Shown here: positions 22,987-63,610 of the stretch, piece by piece | Layout: every line of letters starts with the position of its first letter | Numbering within the stretch: the stretch's first letter is position 1 | From: Candidatus Forterrea multitransposorum CG_2015-17_Forterrea_25_41 | GTDB taxonomy: Archaea > Iainarchaeota > Iainarchaeia > Iainarchaeales > CSSED10-239 | Length of the DNA stretch: 64,000 nt | Direction of reading: 5' to 3' | Assembly (NCBI GenBank): GCA_009392915.1 | Contig: CP045477.1 | Span: 775,633-839,632, forward strand | The notes under the pieces: model-generated | What the model was told of the DNA's origin: nothing | The model's input: the letters and a program-made list of their open reading frames with translations, nothing else | Databases searched by the model: none | Position numbers and translations under genes: made by a program

Positions 22987-24123
22987 ATGATTTCTTTAAA
23001 TTATAAATCTATCTCACCTTTAATTTCTGTAATTTTATTAATTGTTGTATCTATTGCTTTTATAGGTGTAATTACCAATTGGAGTAAAAGTTTTGTTATA
23101 ACGAATTCAGAAAAAGTAGATTTAATAAAAACAAATAATTCTTTAGATCAATTTATTGTTATAGATTCTTTTTATGATTCTGAAGAAAATTCAAGTATTA
23201 TTTTAAAAAATAACGCTAATAAAAATATTGTGCTTGAAAATTATAAATTTATAAACGGGGAAGGTGAGTTTTATAATCAAGAATTTGTAATTTCTGGAGA
23301 TGATGTTTTAAATAAAGGTAATTTATTAAAAATAGATTTAATTTGCTTTCCATCAAATAATTTAGATATTCTTTTTAAAACAACAGATGGAGATTATTTT
23401 AAAGTTAATTTAAAAAAATCTATTTTAAATATAAATTATTGTCATAATGATTTTAAAAATCAAAAAGTATATTCTTTTGAAGAATTGTTAGAAAAGAATC
23501 TTTTAGATGTAAATAGTTATTATTTAGATGTAAATGGAGATTTAAATTTACCTGAAATAGATGATTTTATTATAAAAACAAAATTTAAATTAGATTCAGT
23601 CTCTGGCTATCAAACATTAATTTCATATAAATATTCTGGTGTTTCAGGTTATGGTTCAGGACAAAGAGGTGGATTTAAATTTATGGTTCTTCCAAGCGGT
23701 AATTTTGCAATTGTAGGTAGTCAAAATGGTGGTTCTTTATGGTGGGGTTATTCTGGAGGAGATCCTGGACAAACACCCCCTTTAGTTTCAAATAAGTATT
23801 ATGATTTAATTTATCATAAAAATGGTCGTTTAATTAATTTGTGTCTTAAAGATAATATAGATTATAATTCTTTTTTTTGTAACGAACCTTGGTATTATCC
23901 TTATTATGATATTACAAACATCTATTATAGTGACAATCCAACATATAATTATAAATCAATAATTGGTGCTACAAATTATGGTTTAGAAAATACTTTTTTA
24001 GATTATTTTAATGGATCTGTTGAATATATTGAATTGTATGAATATTCTGAAGATAATAATATATCTTCAGTAAACAACCTTCCTTTAAATAATTATATTT
24101 TTAAAATAGATTTAACAAAATAA
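22987..24123 (+). CDS. Class III signal peptide (archaeal pilin-like) protein with LamG/ConA-like lectin domain
   Basis: N-terminus MISLNYKSISPLISVILLIVVSIAFIGVITNW (charged/Ser then hydrophobic helix). C-terminal region (...GGFKFMVLPSGNFAIVGSQNGGSLWWGYSGG...YDLIYHKNGRLINLCL) resembles the LamG beta-sandwich. Confidence 0.45.
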   Translation: MISLNYKSISPLISVILLIVVSIAFIGVITNWSKSFVITNSEKVDLIKTNNSLDQFIVIDSFYDSEENSSIILKNNANKNIVLENYKFINGEGEFYNQEFVISGDDVLNKGNLLKIDLICFPSNNLDILFKTTDGDYFKVNLKKSILNINYCHNDFKNQKVYSFEELLEKNLLDVNSYYLDVNGDLNLPEIDDFIIKTKFKLDSVSGYQTLISYKYSGVSGYGSGQRGGFKFMVLPSGNFAIVGSQNGGSLWWGYSGGDPGQTPPLVSNKYYDLIYHKNGRLINLCLKDNIDYNSFFCNEPWYYPYYDITNIYYSDNPTYNYKSIIGATNYGLENTFLDYFNGSVEYIELYEYSEDNNISSVNNLPLNNYIFKIDLTK

Positions 24124-25156: not shown

Positions 25157-27490
25157 ATGTTTGCTATTTCAAAAAAAGGAATAAGTCCTTTAATTGTAAC
25201 TATTTTAATTGTTGTTGTAATAGTCATTATTGTGTCTGTTTTATTATTGTGGGGTAAATCTTTCACTTTAGATAATTTATCTCTTTCTGAAAGAGTTTTT
25301 GAAAAATCTAGTCTTTCTGATTTTGTTTGGCAAGATAATTTATTTGAAAAAAATTTATTTATTAAAAATACAAATTCTAAATTAGGTGCGTCAATTATTG
25401 GTTATAAAATAAATAGTTCCTTAGATTATCCTTTTTTAAATGAATATAGATACTTAGAAACTGAAGTTTATTTGGGAAAAAACAGTATTGCAACAATTCC
25501 TTTAGTTTGTATTCCTGAGAAAAATTTTACAATAGAATTAATTACTTCCAAAGATGAGTATATTACTGTGCCTGTTACTTCAAAGTCTTTTGATGCAAGT
25601 GATTGTACTTTTAAAGGAGAAATTACAAATCCTTCTGAAGATTTTAGTATAAGGTCTGGAGATTCTATTTTGTTTGACTCTTTGGCATTAAATACTTCTG
25701 GGAATGAAACTTATTTATGGGTATCTGATAAAGATGGAACTTTAAGTACTGATAAAAATTTTACAATAAGTTCTTTATCTGTAAACAATCATTTAATTAC
25801 TTTAACAATCACAGATTTTAATTCAACTATTGAAAAATCTTTGTCTGTTGTGATTCATCCTCCTTTAAGTTTAAGTATTTTATCTCCAATTGATGATTCT
25901 GGTTTTTTAGTAAACACCTCTATTGATTTTAATTCAATTATTGATAATAATTTAGGTGATTATTCTTGTAATTGGCAATCAAATCTTGATGGTTTGTTAA
26001 GCACCAATTGTATTTTTAATTCTTCAAGTTTATCTGTGGGTAATCACACTTTAACTTTAAATGTAATTGATGATGTAGGAACTAGTAGTGTTACTTCTGA
26101 TATTTTAGTTAAGAATAGTTTTACACCAATCATTAGTTCTCCTTTAGAAGATTCTATTTTTGTAGTAGGAAATAACATAAATTTAATTGGTACAACAATT
26201 AATTCTTTTGGAACTTATACTTGTTCTTGGGATTCAAATATTAATGGAAGTTTAGGTACTGGTTGTAATTTAAATGTTGATGATCTAAACATAGGTGCTC
26301 ATGAAATAACTTTAAATATAACAGATGATTTAGAAACAAAAACTGCAGTAACAACTATTGTAATTAAAGATCATTTACTTCCAGAAATAGTATCTCCTAT
26401 TGCAAGTTCTACTTCAACAGAAGGAAATACAGTTAATTTTTTAGGGAGTGCAACTAATACATATGGAAGTTACACTTGTTCTTGGGATTCAAATCTTGAT
26501 GGAAATTTAGGTGTTGGTTGTGATATAGATGTTTCTGATTTAACTTTAGGAACTCATGAAATAACTTTAAGTGTAACTGATGATTTAGAAACTGTTTCAA
26601 TTTCTCAAATTAATTCTGTGATTGTTATTGTGTATGTTGATGATTTAATTAATTTAGTTTTCAGTGATAGTGTTACAGGTTATTCTTTTTCTGGTAGTAC
26701 TTATAATTATAATGATTTATTAATTTTAAATAGTTCTAATACTGTAACTGTTACTCCGACTGGGGCTGGAACAATAACTGTAAATGGTTCTACTGTTTCC
26801 TCAGGTTCTCCATCAAGTCCTATTGATTTAAGTGATGGTACTGAAAAAACAATTACCATAGAAGTTAGTGATGTTGATAAGTATTCTAAAACTTATACTT
26901 TGAGATTAACTAAAATAGTAACTACTGGTGGAACCATAACTAATGGTACAGGTTATAGAATTCATAAATTTACTTCAAATGGATCATTTACCTCTAACAT
27001 CCCATTAACTGCTGAACTTTTAGTTATTGGTGGAGGTGGAGGTGGTGGTGGATATGATGGTGGTGGTGGTCGTGCCGGAGCGTTATATTATAGTGCATCT
27101 TATTCAATACCTTCAGGTTCAACAAATGTTGTAATTGGTGCTGGAGGTCTAGGTGTAAATTATACAAAAGGATCAGCAGGTACTGCTTCTTCTTTTGGAG
27201 CAATATCTAAAGCTGGAGGTGCTGGTGGGGCTTTAACAAGTCCTAAATCTGGTGGTGCAGGTTGTGGTGGTGGAGGAAGTGCCTTTAATGCAGGACTGGG
27301 TTATGGTCTTGAAGGTCCTGGTTGTACATATAGTATTACAGGAACTCCTGTTGTATATGGTCTAGGAGGAAGAGGAGGTAATGGAGGGAGAACAGATGGT
27401 GCTACAAACACAGGATCAGCAGGTTGGGCTGGCGGAACTAGAGGTGGTCATGGTGCTGATGGAGTTGTAATTGTTAGAATAAATTCTTAG
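25157..27490 (+). CDS. Large (777 aa) class III signal peptide surface protein: tandem Ig/PKD-like repeats plus C-terminal glycine-rich domain
   Basis: N-terminus MFAISKKGISPLIVTILIVVVIVIIVSV. Three to four modules with Y(S/T)C(N/S)W(Q/D)SN(L/I)DG...GC...L(S/N)(V/I)G.H(E/T)(I/L)TL. C-terminal 180 aa is more than 40% Gly (GGGGGGGGYDGGGGRAGA...). Confidence 0.5.
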   Translation: MFAISKKGISPLIVTILIVVVIVIIVSVLLLWGKSFTLDNLSLSERVFEKSSLSDFVWQDNLFEKNLFIKNTNSKLGASIIGYKINSSLDYPFLNEYRYLETEVYLGKNSIATIPLVCIPEKNFTIELITSKDEYITVPVTSKSFDASDCTFKGEITNPSEDFSIRSGDSILFDSLALNTSGNETYLWVSDKDGTLSTDKNFTISSLSVNNHLITLTITDFNSTIEKSLSVVIHPPLSLSILSPIDDSGFLVNTSIDFNSIIDNNLGDYSCNWQSNLDGLLSTNCIFNSSSLSVGNHTLTLNVIDDVGTSSVTSDILVKNSFTPIISSPLEDSIFVVGNNINLIGTTINSFGTYTCSWDSNINGSLGTGCNLNVDDLNIGAHEITLNITDDLETKTAVTTIVIKDHLLPEIVSPIASSTSTEGNTVNFLGSATNTYGSYTCSWDSNLDGNLGVGCDIDVSDLTLGTHEITLSVTDDLETVSISQINSVIVIVYVDDLINLVFSDSVTGYSFSGSTYNYNDLLILNSSNTVTVTPTGAGTITVNGSTVSSGSPSSPIDLSDGTEKTITIEVSDVDKYSKTYTLRLTKIVTTGGTITNGTGYRIHKFTSNGSFTSNIPLTAELLVIGGGGGGGGYDGGGGRAGALYYSASYSIPSGSTNVVIGAGGLGVNYTKGSAGTASSFGAISKAGGAGGALTSPKSGGAGCGGGGSAFNAGLGYGLEGPGCTYSITGTPVVYGLGGRGGNGGRTDGATNTGSAGWAGGTRGGHGADGVVIVRINS
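25955..26640 (+). repeat. Intragenic tandem repeat, period about 250 bp, about 2.7 copies (encodes the repeated Ig/PKD-like modules)
   Basis: Near-identical nucleotide blocks beginning tattcttgtaattggcaatcaaatcttgatgg (about 25960), tatacttgttcttgggattcaaatattaatgg (about 26215) and tacacttgttcttgggattcaaatcttgatgg (about 26468). Confidence 0.6.
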
Positions 27491-43127: not shown

Positions 43128-43829
43128 TTATCCTCTGAATAAAAATAATTTTAGATACCCAATATATGGTATTCTTAATATTTTTTTACCCATTAAGTTT
43201 TCAACATTAATTGGATAAACATTTAAACAACCATTCACAATATAGTTTCCTGAAATTGCACAATCTTGATCAATAATATAATTTGTTTCTCCATTATCTC
43301 CTTTGGTTAAAACATATTTTCCATCATTTGCATTAATAATTAAAACAACTCTATGAATAATATCTCTGCCAGTAAGATTTGATTTATAGACTACTACTGA
43401 ATTATTTTTTTCAATAGCGTCTTTAATTTCAATAATTTGATTATTAATTTCTATTGTTTTAACTTCATTGTTTCCATAACTATTTAATTTATATTCCATT
43501 TTTGCAAATTCACTTAAATTTTTAGTTGAAATATTTTCATCAATAGTAATTATTTCTGATTTTAAATTTTTAGCAGAAGATATAACCATAATATCTCCTC
43601 TATAAAAACTAGGCTCCATTGATCCAGAAACAACTGTTGCAAGAGGAAGTGAAGTTCCTAAAATTAATCCTAATAATTTAAAAATAATAAATGCTAAAAT
43701 AAGAGAATAGACTAAATAAAAAATCCAATACATTATTTTTGTATCTAAACTTTTAGGTTTTCCAAAAAGTCTTAAAAGAAGTGTATCTATGTAATAGTAT
43801 GGATCTAAATATTTTAATCTATCTTTCAT
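43128..43829 (-). CDS. Signal peptidase I (archaeal Sec11/S26 type)
   Basis: N-terminal TM, then VVSGSMEPSFYRGDIMV (S26 catalytic Ser box). Confidence 0.65.
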   Translation of the reverse strand: MKDRLKYLDPYYYIDTLLLRLFGKPKSLDTKIMYWIFYLVYSLILAFIIFKLLGLILGTSLPLATVVSGSMEPSFYRGDIMVISSAKNLKSEIITIDENISTKNLSEFAKMEYKLNSYGNNEVKTIEINNQIIEIKDAIEKNNSVVVYKSNLTGRDIIHRVVLIINANDGKYVLTKGDNGETNYIIDQDCAISGNYIVNGCLNVYPINVENLMGKKILRIPYIGYLKLFLFRG

Positions 43830-51208: not shown

Positions 51209-53344
51209 ATGGTTGAAAAAAAACAAGACTCAATTAAACTAAAAGTACAAGAAGCTTCTGAAGATTTTGTAGGTAAAAACATAGTTAAGCTTGACATTAT
51301 GGTTAAGCAAAAGCTAAATATAATTTCAGGAGATATTATTTTAATTAAAGGTGATGATTTTACCGCTGCACAGGTTTGGCCTGAAAAAAATAAAGCTGGT
51401 GAAGAAAACATTATTAGAATGGATCAATACACTAGAAAAAATGCTAATGTATCTATTGGTGATTTTGTAACTATTAAAAAAATAGAACCTGTTGTTGCAA
51501 AAGAAATTGTTTTAGCACCTTTAAAAGAAGTTAATTTATTTTCTGAAAATCAAGATCTTATTATTAAAAAGAATTTTTTAGGTAGACCTTTTGTTAATGG
51601 TAACCATGTAATGATTAATATTTTTGGTTCAAATTATCTTTATGAAGTTACAAACACATCTCCTTCAAAAATAGTAATTCTTTCAGAAGAAACAAATCTT
51701 ATTATAAATAAAAAACCAGCTTCTAAAAAAGAAATTAAACAAATTATTGGTTATGAGGATGTTGGAGGGTTAAAACCTGAAATTGAAAAAATAAGAGAAA
51801 TGGTTGAGCTTCCTTTTAAATATCCTGAATTTTTTGAAAAATTAAATGTAACTCCTCCAAAAGGAATTTTACTTTATGGACCTCCAGGAACAGGAAAAAC
51901 TTTACTTGCAAAAGCTTTATCAAATGAACTTAAAGCAAACTTTATAGGTATTGATGCTCCACAAATAATGGCAAAGTTTGTAGGCGAAGCTGAAGAAAAA
52001 TTAAGAAATATTTTTAAAAAAGCACAAGCAAAAACACCTGCAATTATTTTCATAGATGAAATTGATGCAATTGCTCCTAAAAGAGATGGGTTTATTTCTG
52101 AAGTTGAAAAACGTGTTGTTGCACAACTTTTAGCACTTATGGATGGTACTTCTTCAAGAGGGGATGTAATTGTAATTGGTGCAACTAATAGACAAGATGA
52201 TATTGATCCAGCACTTAGAAGACCTGGAAGATTTGATAGAGAAATTGATGTTAATGTTCCAAATGAAGAAGGTAGACTTGATATTTTAAAAATACACACT
52301 AGAAATGTACCTTTAGTAAAAGATGTAAACTTAAAAAAAATAGCCCAAGTAACTCATGGTTTTGTAGGAGCTGATCTTTCTGCTTTAGTTAAAGAAGCTG
52401 CAATTATTGCAATTAAAAGTAAAATTTCTGATATTTCTTCTCCTAAAAAAGAAATTTCTTCAAAAATTTTAGAAAACTTAGCAATCTCTAAAGAAGATTT
52501 TGAAAAAGGTTTAAAAGTAGTTCAACCTTCTGCTTTAAGAGAAGTTTTTGTTGATCTTCCAAATATAAATTACTCTGATTTAGGAGCTTTAAAAGAACAA
52601 AAAGAAACTCTTTCTGAAATAATTAATCTTTCTCTTGAAAGAAAAAGTCTTTTACAAAAATATAATGTTAAAACCATTAAAAATATTTTAATTTATGGTC
52701 CTCCAGGAACTGGAAAAACTTCTTTTGTAAAAGCAACTGCAAAAGAACATGGTATTAATTTTTTATATGTTAAAGGTCCTGAAATCTTTAATAAATGGGT
52801 TGGAGAATCAGAAAAAACAATTAGACATATTTTTAAAAAAGCTAAATCTGTCGCTCCTTCAATTTTGTTTTTTGATGAAATAGATTCTCTTACTCAAAGA
52901 CATGATGATTCTATTGGAAACATAAAAGTTCTAGATCAACTTTTATCTGAACTTGATAATTTAGCTGGAAAAGATGTGTTGTTTATATGTGCTACAAATA
53001 GACCTGAAATTATAGATAAATCTTTTTTAAGAAGTGGAAGAATAGATAAATTTATGGAATTTAAACTTCCTACAAACAAAGAAAGAAAAGAAATATTATC
53101 CCTTCTTTTATCAAAAACTCCACATGAAAAAATAGATTTAGATGAGATTGTAAATCTTACAAATAATTTTTCTCCTGCAGATTTAAATCTTTTAATTACT
53201 GAATCTGTATTTTTAACTTTAAAAGAAAATAAGTATAAAGAATCTAAATTAACAAAAGAAGCTATCTTAAAAACTTATTCTAAATTAAAAAATAAAGTCT
53301 CACAAGGTCAAGTTCTTTCAGGAATATCTAAATATGTTAATTAA
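51209..53344 (+). CDS. cdc48: Cdc48/VCP-like AAA+ ATPase (two AAA domains)
   Basis: N-domain, D1 [13 protein letters not shown] with DEIDAI, D2 [13 protein letters not shown] with DEIDSL. Confidence 0.9.
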
Positions 53345-54000
53345 ATTATTCCTGAAAATAACAAATATCCACCAATTGAGATTGCCATTAAGATTACCCA
53401 TAAAAAAGGGCTCCATAAAAATATAGCTTTTCCATCAAGTGGTCCGAATGGTAGTAAATTAAAAAAAGAAATCCATAAATTAATTAATATTCCTAAAGAT
53501 AAAATCATTCCAACAATTGTACTTTGAGTTGTAATTATACTTGCAAGTAAAACAAAGATTCCTGCTAAAATAATATTTGTGATTGGTCCTACAGCAGAAG
53601 TAATTCCATTTTCTTTAACAGAAAGTCTTTTTCCAAAAATATATACTGCTCCAGGAGCTACAAAAACAAAACCAAAAATAAATGCAAAAAAAACTGCAAA
53701 ATATAAAGGTCCATTCCATTTTACAAATTTTGCTTTTGCACCATAATATATTCCTGCATATTTGTGTGCAAGTTCATGTAAAATAAAAGCAGTTCCAGTT
53801 ACAACTAAGCTAACAACTAAAAATAATATGAAAGTAATTATTGAAAAATCATTAAAGTTTGAAAGATTAAATAAATTGTATCCTCCTAACACTAATGCAA
53901 AACATAAGGAAATTCCAAGCCAAGCTATAACTATATCTTTAATTTCACTTGTGTTTTTAGGTTTCATTTCAATTTTATCTTCAAAAAAATCTTCACTCAT
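53341..54000 (-). CDS. Site-2 protease (M50) family intramembrane metalloprotease
   Basis: HELAHKY (HExxH) in a TM helix and LLPFGPLDGKAIF (LDG motif). Polytopic. Confidence 0.6.
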   Translation of the reverse strand: MSEDFFEDKIEMKPKNTSEIKDIVIAWLGISLCFALVLGGYNLFNLSNFNDFSIITFILFLVVSLVVTGTAFILHELAHKYAGIYYGAKAKFVKWNGPLYFAVFFAFIFGFVFVAPGAVYIFGKRLSVKENGITSAVGPITNIILAGIFVLLASIITTQSTIVGMILSLGILINLWISFFNLLPFGPLDGKAIFLWSPFLWVILMAISIGGYLLFSGII

Positions 54001-56477: not shown

Positions 56478-57212
56478 TTATTTTTTCTTTTTAATTATTG
56501 TTTTTTTCTTTTCTTTTTTAAAGGAAATTGGTTTTTTATTTTTAAAATAAGTTTCTTTAATTTTTTCATAAAGTTCTTTTTTAAAAGCATATGCGTATTG
56601 TTTTACTTCTTGACTAATTTTTATATTTCCTTTTTCAAAATCTATTCTTTTAAAAATATTTGTAATTTTTCCATTCTGGTCTGATTTAAATGAATATACA
56701 TTAAGGTTTTGAGGATTTATAAATAACCAATTTCTTCCTTCAAGTCCTCCATATTCTCCAATTCTATCTTTTATAAAAACTCTTGTAAGTTTGCCATCAA
56801 TTTTTACTTTTGTAGTCTGTAAGGTATCTGATTTTAAGGCTCTTAAAAAACCTTTATATGTCTGGTTACAAGTTTGTTCAAATTGTAATGATTGAATATT
56901 ATTTTTAAGGAAAAATCCTTTGTCTAGATTTCTTAATTGAGAAATTGTACTTCTGTTTACATCTTTATTTCGGTATACTTTTACATAATTTGAAAGTAAA
57001 AGATCTCTTATAACTTCTCTTTTATTTTCAACATTATTGCCTTTTAAAACTCTAGAGGTTATTTCAATAATTTCTTTTTTTTGTTCTTTTGTAAAATTAT
57101 TTATAAAATCTTTAAAAATTTTACTTCTAGGCATTCCAATGTTAATTGTCATGGAATCATTTTTTTTTAAAAATATTAATTCTAAGATTTTATTAAATTC
57201 TGCATCTATCAT
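56478..57212 (-). CDS. Hypothetical protein with K-rich C-terminus
   Basis: ORF only. Confidence 0.25.
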   Translation of the reverse strand: MIDAEFNKILELIFLKKNDSMTINIGMPRSKIFKDFINNFTKEQKKEIIEITSRVLKGNNVENKREVIRDLLLSNYVKVYRNKDVNRSTISQLRNLDKGFFLKNNIQSLQFEQTCNQTYKGFLRALKSDTLQTTKVKIDGKLTRVFIKDRIGEYGGLEGRNWLFINPQNLNVYSFKSDQNGKITNIFKRIDFEKGNIKISQEVKQYAYAFKKELYEKIKETYFKNKKPISFKKEKKKTIIKKKK

Positions 57213-57315: not shown

Positions 57316-58191
57316 ATGGCTCCAAAAAAGAAAGAAAAAATAAGTTTTGAAGAAGAACTATATAGATTATTCTTGCCTTTTACAAAAAATATTCAGTCAG
57401 ATGATTTTGAAGAGGCATTAAGTCAAGCAGACATAACTGTAGATATAGATGTTTATTTTTCTAAAAATTTATTTTTTGCATTATTTATACTTTTTATGAT
57501 ATTAATTTTTGGAACTGTTGCAAGTAATTTAGTTCCAGATATTATAAGCTTAAAGTTAGTCGTAATTTTAGCATTATCTATTTTCATTGTATTTGTGGGA
57601 TATGCAGTTTTTAATCCTTATTTAATTATTGGAAATAAAGTTACAAGTATTAGGAATGCATTACCTTTAGCAATTATTGGAATGTCAAGTGTAGCTGAAT
57701 CAGGTGCACCTCCAATTGCAATTTTTTCAACAAAGACAATAAAAGATAAAAGTCAATATTTAGATAAAGAGTTTACAAAAATTACTTATTATGTTAATAA
57801 TTTAGGAATTTCACTTCTTGAAGCAATTGATATTTCTGCAAGAAAAACTCCTTCTTATGATCTTAAAAAGTTTTTACTAGATTTAAAATCAAATATTGAA
57901 GCTGGTGGATCTTTACCTGAATTTATGAAAAAAAAAGCAGAGCATGCAAGATTTCAATATAATCTTTTATTAAATAACCAAAATCAAAAAGCAGAAACTT
58001 TTGGTGATATTTATTCTGCAATTGTTGTTGCAGGTCCATTATTTTTATTTTCTGGTATTATGCTTTTAGGTATGGTTGGTGGTGGTGTTGCAGGTTTAAG
58101 TATAAACACTGTATTACAGATTGGAATATTTTTAATGGTTCCAATAATTAATATTTCATTTATAGCTGTTTTAAATTTAGTTAGTGGTTAG
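57316..58191 (+). CDS. Type II secretion system F-domain membrane protein (TadB/TadC/FlaJ-like pilus platform), copy 1
   Basis: One T2SSF-like cytoplasmic domain flanked by TM helices. Preferred start is the ATG at 57316 (MAPKKKEK), which avoids overlapping the opposite-strand gene. Confidence 0.5.
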   Translation: MAPKKKEKISFEEELYRLFLPFTKNIQSDDFEEALSQADITVDIDVYFSKNLFFALFILFMILIFGTVASNLVPDIISLKLVVILALSIFIVFVGYAVFNPYLIIGNKVTSIRNALPLAIIGMSSVAESGAPPIAIFSTKTIKDKSQYLDKEFTKITYYVNNLGISLLEAIDISARKTPSYDLKKFLLDLKSNIEAGGSLPEFMKKKAEHARFQYNLLLNNQNQKAETFGDIYSAIVVAGPLFLFSGIMLLGMVGGGVAGLSINTVLQIGIFLMVPIINISFIAVLNLVSG

Positions 58192-58198
58192 ATAAAAT

Positions 58199-59050
58199 AT
58201 GGATTTGAAAAAAGAATTTGGAATAACTCTTTCAGAAAAACAAAAGTTTTTCGTAGATTATGTTATTTATGGTTCTGTAGGTTCAATTGTTTTCTTTGTT
58301 TTATTAATGAATACTAAATTTTTAGTTTTTTCAATTTTTCCTTTACTTGCAGCTGTAGGTATTGCTGCAAGAATATACACTGCAAGAATTAAATCTTATG
58401 AAAGAAATCTATATGTGTTTTTAGATGATCTAAAAGATCTTCTTCAAGGTGGTATGAATATTGTAACTGCTATTGAAGTTGCATCTAGACACGATTATGG
58501 TCATTTAAATGCACCTATTAAAAGAATTGCAGCACAAATAAAGATTGGTGTTCCTTTTGATGTTGCTTTAAATGATGTTTTTGGAAATATTGATAGTGCA
58601 GTATTTGCACAAATTACACAAATCATTTCTGAAACTACAAAAGTTGGTGGAAATATAATTAAAATTTTCGCATCAATTTCAGATTATGTTAAAACAATTA
58701 ATGATATGGTAGAAGAAAGAAAATCTAAAACTTTTTCTACAGTTTTTTCAAGTTACTTTATGTTTTTTGTTTTTATTGCTATTATTTTAATTATACAAAT
58801 AGTTTTTTTGCCAATGCTTAGTGGTAGTACAGTTTCATTAACTGGAGAAGGAGCAACAAATGCATCTTCAATGTCTGATGTTAATTTTAATAAATACTTT
58901 TTATATTTAATTGTTATTCAAGGTTTATTTGCAGGTCCAACAATTGGTTTAATTTCCGAAAATAATTTTGTTGCAGGGATACGGCATTCAATTATTCTTG
59001 TAGGGGTTTCTGTTCCTATATATGTAATTGTTTCAGCAATTTTCTTATAA
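58199..59050 (+). CDS. Type II secretion system F-domain membrane protein (TadB/TadC/FlaJ-like pilus platform), copy 2
   Basis: T2SSF-like domain (NIVTAIEVASRHDYGHLNAPIKRIAAQIKIGVPFDVALNDVFG) and 3 TM helices. Lies 7 nt downstream of copy 1, in a different frame. Confidence 0.55.
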   Translation: MDLKKEFGITLSEKQKFFVDYVIYGSVGSIVFFVLLMNTKFLVFSIFPLLAAVGIAARIYTARIKSYERNLYVFLDDLKDLLQGGMNIVTAIEVASRHDYGHLNAPIKRIAAQIKIGVPFDVALNDVFGNIDSAVFAQITQIISETTKVGGNIIKIFASISDYVKTINDMVEERKSKTFSTVFSSYFMFFVFIAIILIIQIVFLPMLSGSTVSLTGEGATNASSMSDVNFNKYFLYLIVIQGLFAGPTIGLISENNFVAGIRHSIILVGVSVPIYVIVSAIFL

Positions 59051-59147
59051 TCTTAATTTGTATTTTAAAGAAGATAGGTTTATATATGTTATAGTTTATA
59101 TATTATTATAATTTAAGAAAAATATATATATATTAAAATGAAAAAAA

Positions 59148-59609
59148 ATGAAAAATAAAAAAGCATTATCTCCATTGATTGCAACCATTCTTTTAGTTGC
59201 TGTTGCTTTATCTTTAGCAGGGATATTATATTCTTGGTCTTCTCAAAATTTTAGAGATACCACAACAAGTGTTTCAGATACTTCTGCAGAATGGATTGAT
59301 TGTAGTAATGTTAATATATATATAGATTCTGGCTGTTCTTATACATCTTTAGATGGATTTGGAACTTTAATATTATTTGATAGATCTACAGTTGAAATTG
59401 ATCAAAATATTGTTTTAACAATTATTGATGCAGATGATGAGATTGCAAGTGTTGAAATTGAACCAAATTTTACTGGTAATGCAATGTCATTAGCTTCAAC
59501 TTTAAATGCTATTGATGGTATTAAAGGTCTTGCAACTCCTCTTAAGAGAGTACAAGCACATGTTAAAAATTGTCCTGATAGAGTATCATATATCTCTAGA
59601 TGTAGTTAA
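59148..59609 (+). CDS. Archaeal type IV pilin-like protein (class III signal peptide), paralogue 1
   Basis: MKNKKALSPLIATILLVAVALSLAGILYSW, four Cys (two predicted disulfides), ends RCS. Confidence 0.65.
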   Translation: MKNKKALSPLIATILLVAVALSLAGILYSWSSQNFRDTTTSVSDTSAEWIDCSNVNIYIDSGCSYTSLDGFGTLILFDRSTVEIDQNIVLTIIDADDEIASVEIEPNFTGNAMSLASTLNAIDGIKGLATPLKRVQAHVKNCPDRVSYISRCS

Positions 59610-59652
59610 TTTTTAAAAAAATTATAAATATGAAAATATAAGGTGATATAAA

Positions 59653-60132
59653 ATGAAAATAAAAAAAGCAATATCTCCATTAATCGCAACTATTTTATTG
59701 ATTGTTGTTGCTGTAGCATTAATTGCAATCGTTGTTGCTTGGGGAAAATCTTTCACAACAGACAGTCTTTCTGATGCAACAGGTGTAGTTGACACAAGTT
59801 GTATGGGTGCTGCAATCCAATTATCAAATTGTATGATTAACGATTCAAATAATTTAGTATTTTACGTTAAAAACACTGGTACAGTAGATATTTCTGCTGG
59901 AGATGATTTAATATTAAATATTAGAAACACATCAGATGGTAATTCAACATTAAATTTACCTTTATCTGAAACTGCAACAACAGAATGGGCAGGTTTAACT
60001 CCTGGACAAACTGCATTAATTACAGTTGATGATGCAAACTTCCCTGGAGCTGCAACAGGAAGATACGATGTAGAAGTAATATCTAACTATTGTGCTTCAG
60101 ATGCAGTTGCACAAATCAAAAACTGTCAATAG
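59653..60132 (+). CDS. Archaeal type IV pilin-like protein, paralogue 2
   Basis: MKIKKAISPLIATILLIVVAVALIAIVVAW, four Cys, ends NCQ. AGGTGA ribosome-binding site upstream. Confidence 0.65.
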   Translation: MKIKKAISPLIATILLIVVAVALIAIVVAWGKSFTTDSLSDATGVVDTSCMGAAIQLSNCMINDSNNLVFYVKNTGTVDISAGDDLILNIRNTSDGNSTLNLPLSETATTEWAGLTPGQTALITVDDANFPGAATGRYDVEVISNYCASDAVAQIKNCQ

Positions 60133-60222
60133 ATGTATATAATAAAAAGAGACTTTCTTTATAATTATAAAGAAAGTTTTTCTTTTTTTATTTTTTTTTA
60201 AATTATAAATTTTGAAATTTTT

Positions 60223-60666
60223 ATGAAAAAAGCAATAAGCCCTATAATCGCAACTATTTTATTAATTGTAGTATCTTTAGCATTAGTTGCTATACTTTTA
60301 TCTTGGGGTTCTGATTTTGTTACAAAAAATACAAGTGAAGCTGATAACGCTGTAAATAAAGAATGTGTTGGAGCATACATTGATTTTGTTTCTTGTATTT
60401 ATAATGTTTCAGAAGAAACAATTACTGCAAGTTTTATTAATTCAGGTAATATTGATTTTGATAGTGATTATAATTTTAATGTAACAATTATTGATAATGC
60501 AAAACAAGTAGATTTCTCTAACAATGATGTTTTAGATTCAAATGGTCTTTCAAAAGGTGAATCAAACTATTTTATTATTGAAGATTATAATGGTGTACGT
60601 CCAATAAAAGTTCAATTAAGAAGCACTCAATGTCCTTTAAGTTATTGGGAAACTAAATGTTCTTAA
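60223..60666 (+). CDS. Archaeal type IV pilin-like protein, paralogue 3
   Basis: MKKAISPIIATILLIVVSLALVAILLSW, four Cys, ends KCS. Confidence 0.65.
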   Translation: MKKAISPIIATILLIVVSLALVAILLSWGSDFVTKNTSEADNAVNKECVGAYIDFVSCIYNVSEETITASFINSGNIDFDSDYNFNVTIIDNAKQVDFSNNDVLDSNGLSKGESNYFIIEDYNGVRPIKVQLRSTQCPLSYWETKCS

Positions 60667-62181: not shown

Positions 62182-62541
62182 TTAATACTTAACTCCTATT
62201 TCTATATATATTTCTTTATTAGAACTATTAATATATTTAATGTTTTGAGAAATTATTCTGTATTTATTATTTTTTTTATTAATTTCTTTTTTTTTACTAT
62301 TAATTATTATATATCCTTCTGTTGTTGGGAATAATAATTTATAATTTTCTTCTAATTGTTCAATAGAATCTATTTCTAGTTTTTGAGAAGTTATTAAAAG
62401 ATCAGATATTCTGTTATTAATTAATATTTTTTCTGCACTTTCAATATTTGGTACTTGTAAAATAAACCCCATTATTCCAACAAATAATAACGCAATGATT
62501 GCATCTATTGTAAACATTATTCCTTTATTCACAAAAACCAA
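62182..62541 (-). CDS. Small pilin-like protein (class III-like signal peptide), 4th of an overlapping set
   Basis: MVFVNKGIMFTIDAIIALLFVGIMGFIL: charged N-region, Gly, then a hydrophobic helix. Confidence 0.35.
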   Translation of the reverse strand: MVFVNKGIMFTIDAIIALLFVGIMGFILQVPNIESAEKILINNRISDLLITSQKLEIDSIEQLEENYKLLFPTTEGYIIINSKKKEINKKNNKYRIISQNIKYINSSNKEIYIEIGVKY

Positions 62542-62929
62542 CCTCTAAAATCGAAAATTTATTTTTATAAATTATTCCTCTATTATGTTTATTTTTTATT
62601 TCACCATTTTTTTTATATATCTGGTCATTATTTATTTTAATTTCACAAAAGTAAGGCTTAATTTTTTCTAAATTTTTTATTTCTATTTCATTAGCAAGAC
62701 ATTTTTTTGTTTGTTGATTAATTTTTCCTAGATAATTACAATCTAATAAATATATATCAATTAAAAAATCATTTTTTATAATTTCTATTTCTGTTTCTTT
62801 AAAAGAAATATTTTCTTTATAGCTGATGATAATTTTTGTTTCAATAGATAATATAATTATTATAAGAATTATAAATATTAAAACATCAAGTATCATTACT
62901 TGTGCTTTTTTTTGCTCTACAAGCATCAT
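62525..62929 (-). CDS. Small pilin-like protein, 3rd of the set
   Basis: MMLVEQKKAQVMILDVLIFIILIIIILSI. Confidence 0.35.
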   Translation of the reverse strand: MMLVEQKKAQVMILDVLIFIILIIIILSIETKIIISYKENISFKETEIEIIKNDFLIDIYLLDCNYLGKINQQTKKCLANEIEIKNLEKIKPYFCEIKINNDQIYKKNGEIKNKHNRGIIYKNKFSILEVGFCE

Positions 62930-63122
62930 AGACTAATACTCCATTATTTTTAGTTAACATTTTTTCTTTAATAAAACAGATTTCCTGATTAATATTTTTA
63001 AAATTAATTTTTTCTTTTAAAGTTTCTTTAAAATAAATATTTGTGTTTATAAATAAATAAAGAGTTATAAGTATTATTAAAAAAGCAAATATAAATTCAA
63101 GAGAAACTTGTCCTTTTAACAA
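62886..63122 (-). CDS. Small pilin-like protein with G|QVSLE(+5) motif, 2nd of the set
   Basis: MLKGQVSLEFIFAFLIILITLYLF: Gly at -1 and Glu at +5, as in bacterial type IV pilins and pseudopilins. Confidence 0.4.
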   Translation of the reverse strand: MLKGQVSLEFIFAFLIILITLYLFINTNIYFKETLKEKINFKNINQEICFIKEKMLTKNNGVLVYDACRAKKSTSNDT

Positions 63123-63610
63123 AAGACCACCTCTCTTATAAAATAATTTTTAGGAAAATTAAATGTTTCTTGATAGTTTCTGTTTTTTACAATAAATAAT
63201 AATTGTTTATTATAAAAAATCCCTCTTGTAATATATGCTTCTTTAATTAATATTCTTTCAGATGGTCTGTAAATTATCACTCTTATTATTTCTGTTGTAT
63301 CTAATAAAGTAATTTTGTTTTTTTCTTTAGAAATAGTGTTTTGAATATAGAAATTATTTTTATTTCCATATTCAAAAATATTGGAGCTTATTTTTTCTTT
63401 AACAACTAAAGGATTGCTTTCACAATCATTAAGTGTATTTTTAATGGTTTTTTCAAAGTTGTAATAAATATTTTCTTTTCTAGTTTCAATCTGTTTAATG
63501 ATTATAAGATCAGTGGTTTCATTTAGGTTATTTTCGAGAGTTATAAATAAAAAAAAGAGCATAAATAGAAGAATAGTTATAGAGGCAAAGGCTTTTTTAG
63601 ACACTGCCAT
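63116..63610 (-). CDS. Small pilin-like / N-terminally anchored protein, 1st of the set
   Basis: MAVSKKAFASITILLFMLFFLFITL. The start codon directly abuts the 24-bp palindrome. Confidence 0.35.
   Translation of the reverse strand: MAVSKKAFASITILLFMLFFLFITLENNLNETTDLIIIKQIETRKENIYYNFEKTIKNTLNDCESNPLVVKEKISSNIFEYGNKNNFYIQNTISKEKNKITLLDTTEIIRVIIYRPSERILIKEAYITRGIFYNKQLLFIVKNRNYQETFNFPKNYFIREVVFC

Follow-up and report, generated by a model that had tools for sequence, protein, structure and literature searches.

Within the window, by which we mean the whole 64-kb stretch of DNA that was analysed, five plus-strand genes form a platform-pilin cluster that sits amid housekeeping genes, and all five open reading frames (ORFs) that the initial annotation had placed there were found at the coordinates it gave. 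First, platform gene 1 (ORF1, 57316-58191) and platform gene 2 (ORF2, 58199-59050) encode proteins of 291 and 283 amino acids, respectively, each with one T2SSF domain. ORF1 ends in a TAG stop codon at 58189-58191 and, after a spacer of 7 nt (58192-58198), the ATG of ORF2 opens a different frame. The start of ORF1 at 57316 is supported by its orthologs from related genomes (289-296 amino acids), since these align from the first methionine. Second, three pilin genes follow, namely, pilin 1 (59148-59609, 153 amino acids), pilin 2 (59653-60132, 159 amino acids) and pilin 3 (60223-60666, 147 amino acids), with the stop codon of the latter overlapping the 3' end of a convergent tRNA-splicing endonuclease gene. 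An ORFan at 56478-57212 was considered as an additional pilus component and discarded, because it is missing from that position in relatives.

The identity of the two platform proteins was established with profile searches. Against the Pfam T2SSF model (PF00482), whose gathering cut-off is 25.2 bits, ORF1 scored 38.7 bits (E 1.1e-9, residues 123-245) and ORF2 scored 58.9 bits (E 6.6e-16, residues 74-199), in agreement with the single T2SSF-like domain previously attributed to each. In both translations, long hydrophobic stretches can be seen by eye on either side of this domain. When compared with the NCBIfam models for ArlJ/FlaJ and UpsF, ORF1 covers only their N-terminal halves (positions 6-240 of 555, 14-163 of 465, 38-194 of 525 and 29-222 of 484), and ORF2 their C-terminal halves (188-411 of 465, 236-426 of 525, 300-540 of 555 and, for UpsF, 263-412 of 484). 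Therefore, the two together correspond to one colinear FlaJ-type platform, and the resemblance to the bacterial TadB/TadC split noticed earlier is borne out, in that two adjacent single-T2SSF genes cover the two platform halves. ORF1 and ORF2 are remote paralogs of each other (hhalign probability 88.6%, E 2.7e-6), a relationship for which profile-profile comparison was required, as BLASTP was barely significant (E 0.034). Sequence searches of the platform proteins against PDB chains returned nothing useful, the best match being the N-terminal domain of PilC with an E value of 0.16.

The three small ORFs begin with MKNKKALSPLIATILL (pilin 1), MKIKKAISPLIATILL (pilin 2) and MKKAISPIIATILL (pilin 3), that is, with the class III signals MKNKKA/LSP, MKIKKA/ISP and MKKA/ISP, where the slash marks the predicted cleavage site. 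In all three, the N-terminus fits a FlaFind-like pattern and then runs into a hydrophobic stretch, and all three pass TIGR02537, which has a cut-off of 20 bits (24.1 bits for pilin 2 and 23.9 bits for pilin 3). Moreover, the profile of the pilin family matches a solved Pyrobaculum pilin (E 3.7e-9), and the AlphaFold model, an N-terminal helix plus a β-sandwich head, has an archaeal-pilin-like fold. Judged by sequence profiles and predicted structure, the three paralogs are genuine archaeal type IV pilins, as the initial annotation had it. Matches to other models fell under their cut-offs, namely, UpsA and Pfam Arch_flagellin for pilin 2 (E 9.6e-8 over residues 4-154, and E 2.2e-5, respectively) and Pfam Pilin_N for the pilins (E 0.13-0.35). 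With respect to Sulfolobus UpsA, the pilins score 29-34 bits, far under the equivalog cut-off of 130. Pilins 2 and 3 each carry three N-X-S/T sequons; the pilin 2 type is present in two or three copies in some relatives, and pilin 3 orthologs stand last in the pilin row of relatives.

Each pilin contains exactly four cysteines (52, 63, 142 and 152 in pilin 1; 50, 60, 147 and 158 in pilin 2; 48, 58, 137 and 146 in pilin 3), the last of them being the penultimate residue, which confirms the C-terminal C-x-COOH arrangement first noted at this locus. The four positions are kept in 120 of the 123 members of the family. Since the remaining three members each miss a different cysteine, a co-loss signal that could indicate their pairing is absent. 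A local loop between C142 and C152 (pilin 1 numbering) is doubtful, because the model predicts an unbroken strand at 142-149. Paired in two disulfides, the four conserved cysteines would probably lend rigidity to the exposed head. The organism is likely to live where oxygen is low, a setting in which disulfides outside the cell are less certain.

Neither a FlaI/TadA-type ATPase nor a prepilin peptidase lies in the locus, as originally reported. An HMM built from related ATPases and run with filters off gave a best E value of 0.52 across the 64-kb window, and no T2SSE ATPase was present in the approximately 7.7 kb of the source contig past the window end. An ATPase of this family, 675 amino acids long, was found at a second locus, which very probably belongs to the same population. 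This locus was seen in sister samples, and its G+C content matches that of the window's own population; the samples, the pattern of abundance and the G+C together suggest that both contigs belong to a single genome. A matching ATPase locus is probably also present in the genome of the nearest relative, and ATPase P0113 probably belongs with the platform gene of the 89% relative. Thus, of the earlier proposal that the motor is encoded elsewhere or is unusual, the first part stands, whereas the second does not, as this is a conventional T2SSE protein. It scores 314 and 224 bits against the archaeal ATPases (A. fulgidus GspE and FlaI), versus 137 bits against CpaF. As for the peptidase, no A24-type enzyme was seen among the membrane proteins of the window, and a crude motif scan of hydrophobic ORFs (G-x-G-D-x-[KR]) found none in the window or in 40 loci. 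Archaeal pilus loci are normally without a prepilin peptidase gene, and pibD and flaK usually stand alone.

Based on these results, the locus is a genuine but ordinary part of the type IV pilus system of a tiny-genome, Iainarchaeum-like DPANN archaeon, and it very likely provides the platform and filament-subunit module of this pilus, with the motor ATPase at a separate locus. The two platform proteins represent a FlaJ/TadC-type protein whose N- and C-terminal halves are produced as separate chains, and these presumably form a heterodimer in the membrane, by analogy with TadB/TadC and EpdJ/EpdK. The pilins would be inserted in the membrane and cleaved behind K-A by a prepilin peptidase whose gene lies elsewhere, and the platform would then lift them into the filament, powered by the T2SSE/FlaI-family ATPase from the separate locus, where its gene is accompanied by two minor-pilin-like genes and one for a coiled-coil protein. 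The three conserved pilin types probably represent one major and two accessory subunits. The most likely role of such a filament would be adhesion to surfaces or to partner cells; pili are the most plausible means for ultrasmall DPANN archaea to hold on to either.

A different use of the same parts, namely, a (minimal) archaellum, or a filament for a non-adhesive purpose such as DNA uptake or a secretion pseudopilus, seems unlikely to us. The platform scores only 74 and 57 bits against ArlJ models whose cut-offs are 550 and 400 (range 400-570), and the ATPase 323 bits against a FlaI cut-off of 550, so neither is an archaellum equivalog. In addition, none of FlaH, FlaF/G, FlaX or FlaC/D/E was seen at the platform locus or at the ATPase locus. 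The pilins are also about 50 residues shorter than typical archaellins, which counts against an archaellum. All of these observations concern the archaellum, and none of them weighs on DNA uptake in particular.

The split platform itself, regarded in the initial annotation as unusual for archaea, belongs to a class already known in this domain, of which the locus is a new instance. In Methanococcus maripaludis, EpdJ and EpdK are two single-domain platform genes, both required for piliation (PMC4371748); the two-gene platforms of Epd-like and Tad systems have been read as arising when a two-domain gene underwent an ancient fission (PMC6668835); and many 'clade 2' euryarchaeal systems carry two tadC-like genes (PMC4858521). 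In our own searches, the order ATPase, T2SSF, T2SSF was seen at both of the further DPANN-type loci examined, one of which is named Woesearchaeota. Furthermore, about 130 of the 150 nearest ORF2 cluster representatives (50% clusters) are shorter than 500 amino acids, and 19 of the 20 long ones match in their C-terminal half. Because other DPANN loci, most of these representatives and many clade 2 euryarchaea share the two-gene arrangement, the split is old and widespread. These same observations make it quite improbable that a lineage-specific fission took place independently in Iainarchaeia, as a new event unrelated to that of Epd and Tad. What speaks for such an event is that the word 'DPANN' is absent from the paper describing the fission (PMC6668835), whose data set did not include this group; that the pilins, at about 150 amino acids, are PilA/UpsA-like rather than short and Flp/Epd-like; and that the ATPase resembles GspE of A. 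fulgidus and FlaI more than it does CpaF. If, on the contrary, DPANN two-gene platforms share the Epd/Tad fission, this event would predate the Epd-like clade from which it was reported and extend beyond it.

Compared with individual systems, the locus shares some features and differs in others. First, the Epd system of M. maripaludis, with its ATPase EpdL, also has two adjacent single-T2SSF platform genes, and one neighboring small ORF in the window has an Epd-type KGQ signal. However, Epd pilins combine the K-G-Q signal with a dedicated peptidase, EppA, whereas the main pilins described here have K-A/[IL]-S-P signals of the PibD/UpsA type and four conserved cysteines, and the ATPase is unlinked from the platform genes. 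Second, bacterial TadB/TadC is likewise a platform of two single-T2SSF proteins served by one ATPase, of the heterodimer type that is presumed here, and the Tad platform reportedly has the same archaeal origin (PMC6668835); unlike Tad/Flp, the present system is archaeal and is without TadZ, secretin and short pilins of the Flp type. Third, the clade 2 systems, exemplified by PilA/PilB/PilC of Haloferax volcanii, have the same PilA-type N-terminus, [KR]-[AG]-[IV]-S-P-[LV]-I-A. Their pilins belong to the PilA family (DUF1628/Pilin_N); the pilin loci are often apart from the ATPase/tadC locus, and minor pilins as well as large adhesin-like proteins accompany these systems (Makarova et al., 2016, PMC4858521). 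In clade 2, tadC adjoins the ATPase and the pilins are apart, whereas here the pilins are joined by the platform genes and it is the ATPase that is apart.

That the locus is a decaying remnant, in which a platform and pilins are left without a motor and a filament is no longer built, might be suspected from its position amid housekeeping genes and from the lack of an ATPase or peptidase gene in the window or in the sequence sampled past its end. Such decay is very hard to reconcile with dN/dS values of 0.08-0.22 relative to the closest relative (0.12 for platform gene 1 and 0.08 for platform gene 2, both against L007), which indicate purifying selection; with the gene order and all three pilin ortholog groups being kept across many species; and with a matching ATPase locus being present, very probably, in this population as well as in the genome of the nearest relative. 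The platform split is likewise conserved. It recurs in assemblies of this sequence made independently, with different pipelines and from different samples, two of them viewed in full, and in all 25 species-level loci from GTDB genomes that span the junction. Among these loci, identity falls as low as 37%, the gap varies from 0 to 24 nt, and the start codons are intact. An ORF1 ortholog lies directly upstream of platform gene 2 in every junction-spanning locus that was fetched, and 61 of the 63 ORF2 homologs are 246-293 amino acids long with one T2SSF domain, the other two being a 164-amino-acid fragment and a protein without a Pfam hit on record. Despite the mere 7 nt between two ORFs in different frames that are colinear with the halves of FlaJ, we therefore dismiss as next to impossible that one canonical two-domain FlaJ was disrupted, either through an error in sequencing or assembly or through a recent frameshift leading to a pseudogene; by these sequence comparisons, the split of the platform into two genes is not a frameshift.

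What is derived in this lineage is the dispersal of a single pilus operon and the four-cysteine pilin family. In more distant Iainarchaeal relatives, pilins, ATPase and both platform genes are found in one operon, and of the accessory genes searched with HMMs from this distant clade, mpA and mpB alone were recovered, beside the remote ATPase. An ancestral operon of pilins, accessory genes, ATPase, platform gene 1 and platform gene 2 would thus have been broken up in the present subclade. It is tempting, if still speculative, to propose that one Iainarchaeal subclade took its operon apart, leaving platform and pilins amid housekeeping genes and the ATPase with minor-pilin-like genes, and at the same time has a lineage-specific pilin family with a head locked by two conserved disulfides. 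If so, this head would be a solution resembling the D-region of bacteria and not shared with the nearest solved archaeal pilin; indeed, the cysteine positions are not those of the flagellar-like pilus subunit of Pyrobaculum calidifontis (PDB: 8fk7).

Current views are not overturned by this locus. A literature search turned up no dedicated study of the pili of Diapherotrites/Iainarchaeia, and the present analysis provides a parts list for Iainarchaeia, namely, a platform pair, three conserved pilin types, candidate minor pilins and a remote ATPase locus, for genes that annotation pipelines mislabel as 'flagellar protein FlaJ' or as hypothetical. It also adds two-gene platforms from DPANN archaea, and these are relevant to the proposal that the bacterial Tad pilus arose from archaea.

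The candidate minor pilins near the locus are four small ORFs of the minus strand (62182-62541, 62525-62929, 62886-63122 and 63116-63610) with N-termini that look like class III signals. HMMs for accessory genes of the distant clade (small TM, large 675-1093-amino-acid, mpC and coiled-coil proteins) found no convincing counterpart in the 64-kb window, and so homology does not tie these ORFs to those accessories; they resemble the minor-pilin-like genes in the operon of the distant clade only weakly (best E 0.036). All four fit a FlaFind-like pattern that leads into a hydrophobic stretch, and one of them, starting with MLKGQVSLEF, passes Pfam Class_IIIsignal with 24.5 bits versus a cut-off of 23.7. 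In relatives, at 56-68% identity, this block is syntenic with the platform-pilin block, and we infer that the four ORFs are candidate minor pilin-like components of the system.

The window has a G+C content of about 24%, and its genes have close homologues under the names Candidatus Iainarchaeum or Diapherotrites, which are DPANN archaea. All five ORFs of the pilus-like locus described in the initial annotation were found on the plus strand at exactly matching coordinates, namely, platform gene 1 (ORF1; 57316-58191, 291 aa), platform gene 2 (ORF2; 58199-59050, 283 aa), pilin 1 (59148-59609, 153 aa), pilin 2 (59653-60132, 159 aa) and pilin 3 (60223-60666, 147 aa). The observation was thus confirmed, and its interpretation is supported in part. 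A longer ORF1 with a TTG start at 57037, which would overlap the minus-strand gene upstream, is not supported, since orthologues are 289-296 aa long and align from the first Met.

Each platform ORF carries one T2SSF domain, as had been proposed, with Pfam scores of 38.7 bits (ORF1) and 58.9 bits (ORF2) over a gathering score of 25.2, and the two are remote paralogues in this domain (hhalign E 2.7e-6). Neither protein contains Cys. On the NCBIfam ArlJ/FlaJ and UpsF models, where all scores fall far under the equivalog cut-offs, ORF1 matches N-terminal halves only (6-240 of 555; 29-222 of 484), and ORF2 C-terminal halves only (300-540 of 555; 188-411 of 465; UpsF, 263-412 of 484). Read from these matches, the two genes together equal, colinearly, one FlaJ-type protein.

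The TAG stop of ORF1 lies at 58189-58191 and ORF2 starts 7 nt further in a different frame, an arrangement for which a frameshift had been offered as the alternative. This alternative is ruled out by the following results. First, the exact ORF2 protein is present in 96 index blocks of the assembly collection, and the platform genes are called separately in two independent assemblies (ENA and JGI), the only two of the 24 contigs read that are shown in full. Second, when a single genome was scanned for each GTDB species, 28 loci of 37-99% identity were returned, and in all 25 that span the junction the ORF1 orthologue is directly followed by that of ORF2, with a gap of 0-24 nt and a start codon for each gene. 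Third, 61 of 63 ORF2 homologues are 246-293 aa long with a single T2SSF domain, the other two being a 164-aa fragment and a protein with no Pfam hit on record. Fourth, dN/dS values (Nei-Gojobori, against the relative of 89% identity) are 0.12 for ORF1 and 0.08 for ORF2; those of the pilins are 0.15-0.22.

The two-gene platform, which prompted the initial annotation as a departure from the archaeal norm, is in fact common. Methanococcus maripaludis, with which the locus shares paired single-T2SSF platform genes, requires both EpdJ and EpdK, co-regulated paralogues of PilC that are 'reminiscent of' TadB/TadC (PMC4371748); Denise et al. found one T2SSF domain per Epd-like or Tad platform gene, read as ancient gene fission (PMC6668835); and Makarova et al. 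described pilin loci apart from ATPase/tadC loci, a TadC of 'short form', and pairs of tadC-like genes in clade 1 as well as in many of the clade 2 euryarchaeal systems (PMC4858521). Moreover, about 130 of the best 150 50%-cluster representatives in an exhaustive profile search are shorter than 500 aa, and 19 of the 20 long ones match in their C-terminal half. At a further two loci of DPANN type, of which one is named Woesearchaeota, an ATPase gene, a small ORF and two T2SSF genes follow one another. What is modestly unusual here is the linkage of the platform genes to pilins, not to the ATPase, and, to a similarly modest degree, a lineage-specific pilin family with four conserved Cys.

The reported lack of an ATPase at the locus holds: no T2SSE ATPase was detected in the window (HMM, filters off, best E 0.52) or in about 7.7 kb of the source contig past its end. 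In a more distant Iainarchaeal clade (37-41% identity) the system is a single operon that encodes, in this order, up to three KGISP-type pilins (at least one), a small membrane protein, a secreted protein of 675-1093 aa, three small class-III-like proteins, a 110-aa coiled-coil protein, a ~750-aa ATPase (Walker A, GPTASGKT) and, at its end, platforms 1 and 2. Complete versions are seen in L025, L027, L029, L030, L031 and L034, and very large convergent surface-protein genes (768-1390 aa) lie downstream of the platform genes. Searching with the distant-clade ATPases returned two proteins. P0113 (671 aa) and P0003, the platform gene of the 89% relative, both report a longest contig of 671,531 bp, which suggests that they share one contig. 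P0111 (675 aa) is on contigs from sister samples of the window contig (JGI 3300007985 versus 3300007988; ENA ERZ17986944 versus ERZ17986945), with 92 index blocks against the 96 of ORF2 and a locus G+C of 0.245 against 0.240, and its locus apparently belongs to the same population. That locus (L037, 5738-10028) encodes a 325-aa membrane protein, two minor-pilin-like genes, a 112-116-aa coiled-coil ORF and the 675-aa T2SSE ATPase; the genes upstream of the latter include homologues of two small class-III-like genes of the distant operon (E 1.3e-7 each) and the coiled-coil ORF. Among solved proteins this ATPase is closest to A. fulgidus GspE (314 bits), followed by FlaI (224 bits) and CpaF (137 bits). 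Its first ~190 residues form a Lys/Glu-rich extension that FlaI and afGspE lack and that is longer still in the ~750-aa distant-clade proteins. Hence, of the earlier suggestion that the motor is encoded elsewhere or is unusual, the first part probably holds and the second is not supported, as the motor looks conventional. Taken with the distant-clade operon and the other linked DPANN loci, this remote ATPase locus indicates that linkage is ancestral and dispersal derived in the window's subclade.

Archaeal prepilin peptidases are commonly encoded by stand-alone genes, and none was found in the window or other fetched DNA. The gene of a small membrane protease of M50 type (site-2 protease-like; 53341-54000, minus strand) precedes the locus by a few kb, in conserved synteny with it, and a type I signal peptidase-like gene (43128-43829, minus strand) lies farther upstream; neither encodes a prepilin peptidase of the A24 type.

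The three small ORFs are pilins with class III signals, as initially described: their N-termini (MKNKKALSPLIATILL, MKIKKAISPLIATILL, MKKAISPIIATILL) match the archaeal pattern, and all score above the cut-off of TIGR02537 ('archaellin/type IV pilin N-terminal domain'), while their matches to Pfam Pilin_N, Pfam Arch_flagellin and NCBIfam UpsA stay below threshold. The family search gave 204 relatives, nearly all of them unannotated and of 147-178 aa; a profile from 123 of them matches the solved subunit (8fk7) of a flagellar-like type IV pilus of Pyrobaculum calidifontis, nearly full length (E 3.7e-9), and AlphaFold2 with this alignment predicts a helix (9-54) followed by a β-sandwich (pLDDT 81.6). 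Each paralogue has its own orthologue group in relatives, in conserved order, and thus the paralogues are old; in some relatives the pilin-2 type has expanded. The count of exactly four Cys per pilin was also correct. All four positions are filled in 120 of 123 family members (total exactly four in 111), with spacings of 10-12 and 9-11 residues, and in 122 members the distance of the last Cys to the C-terminus is 0-3 residues. The nearest solved pilin, 8fk7, does not have Cys at these positions. Conserved cysteines of archaeal pilus components were noted earlier in Thermoproteales (PMC4858521). Two disulfides per pilin may reasonably be inferred from this conservation, and the unbroken strand predicted at 142-149 makes a simple local loop between C142 and C152 less likely.

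To the gene identities and conservation observed we would add a mechanism drawn, at every step, by analogy with the superfamily. Prepilins would be inserted into the membrane and their short basic leader cut off after K-A by an A24 peptidase; a platform 1/platform 2 heterodimer would couple conformational changes of a hexameric ATPase to pilin extraction and addition at the filament base. A single paralogue may build the shaft, perhaps pilin 1 as the most conserved, the others priming or tipping a filament that would serve in attachment.

Other genes of the window were also noted. Four small overlapping minus-strand ORFs at 62182-63610 (119, 134, 78 and 164 aa) have class-III-signal-like N-termini and are probably minor pilin-like components; one of them, MLKGQVSLEF..., carries a KGQ motif of the Epd type and scores above the threshold of Pfam Class_IIIsignal. 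In relatives this block keeps its synteny with the platform-pilin block; between the two lie the genes for tRNA-splicing endonuclease, DUF357 and diphthine synthase. Two plus-strand proteins, of 378 aa (22987-24123) and 777 aa (25157-27490; PKD, cadherin-like and glycine-rich domains), share a pilin-type N-terminus (KSISPLISVILLIVV and KKGISPLIVTILIVV) and are candidates for adhesins with a pilin-type anchor or for surface proteins cut by the same peptidase. Finally, a 244-aa lysine-rich ORFan without family match (56478-57212, minus strand) separates platform gene 1 from an Obg/Drg-type GTPase gene. Relatives of 56-68% identity lack a gene here, so that the ORFan appears to have been inserted recently.
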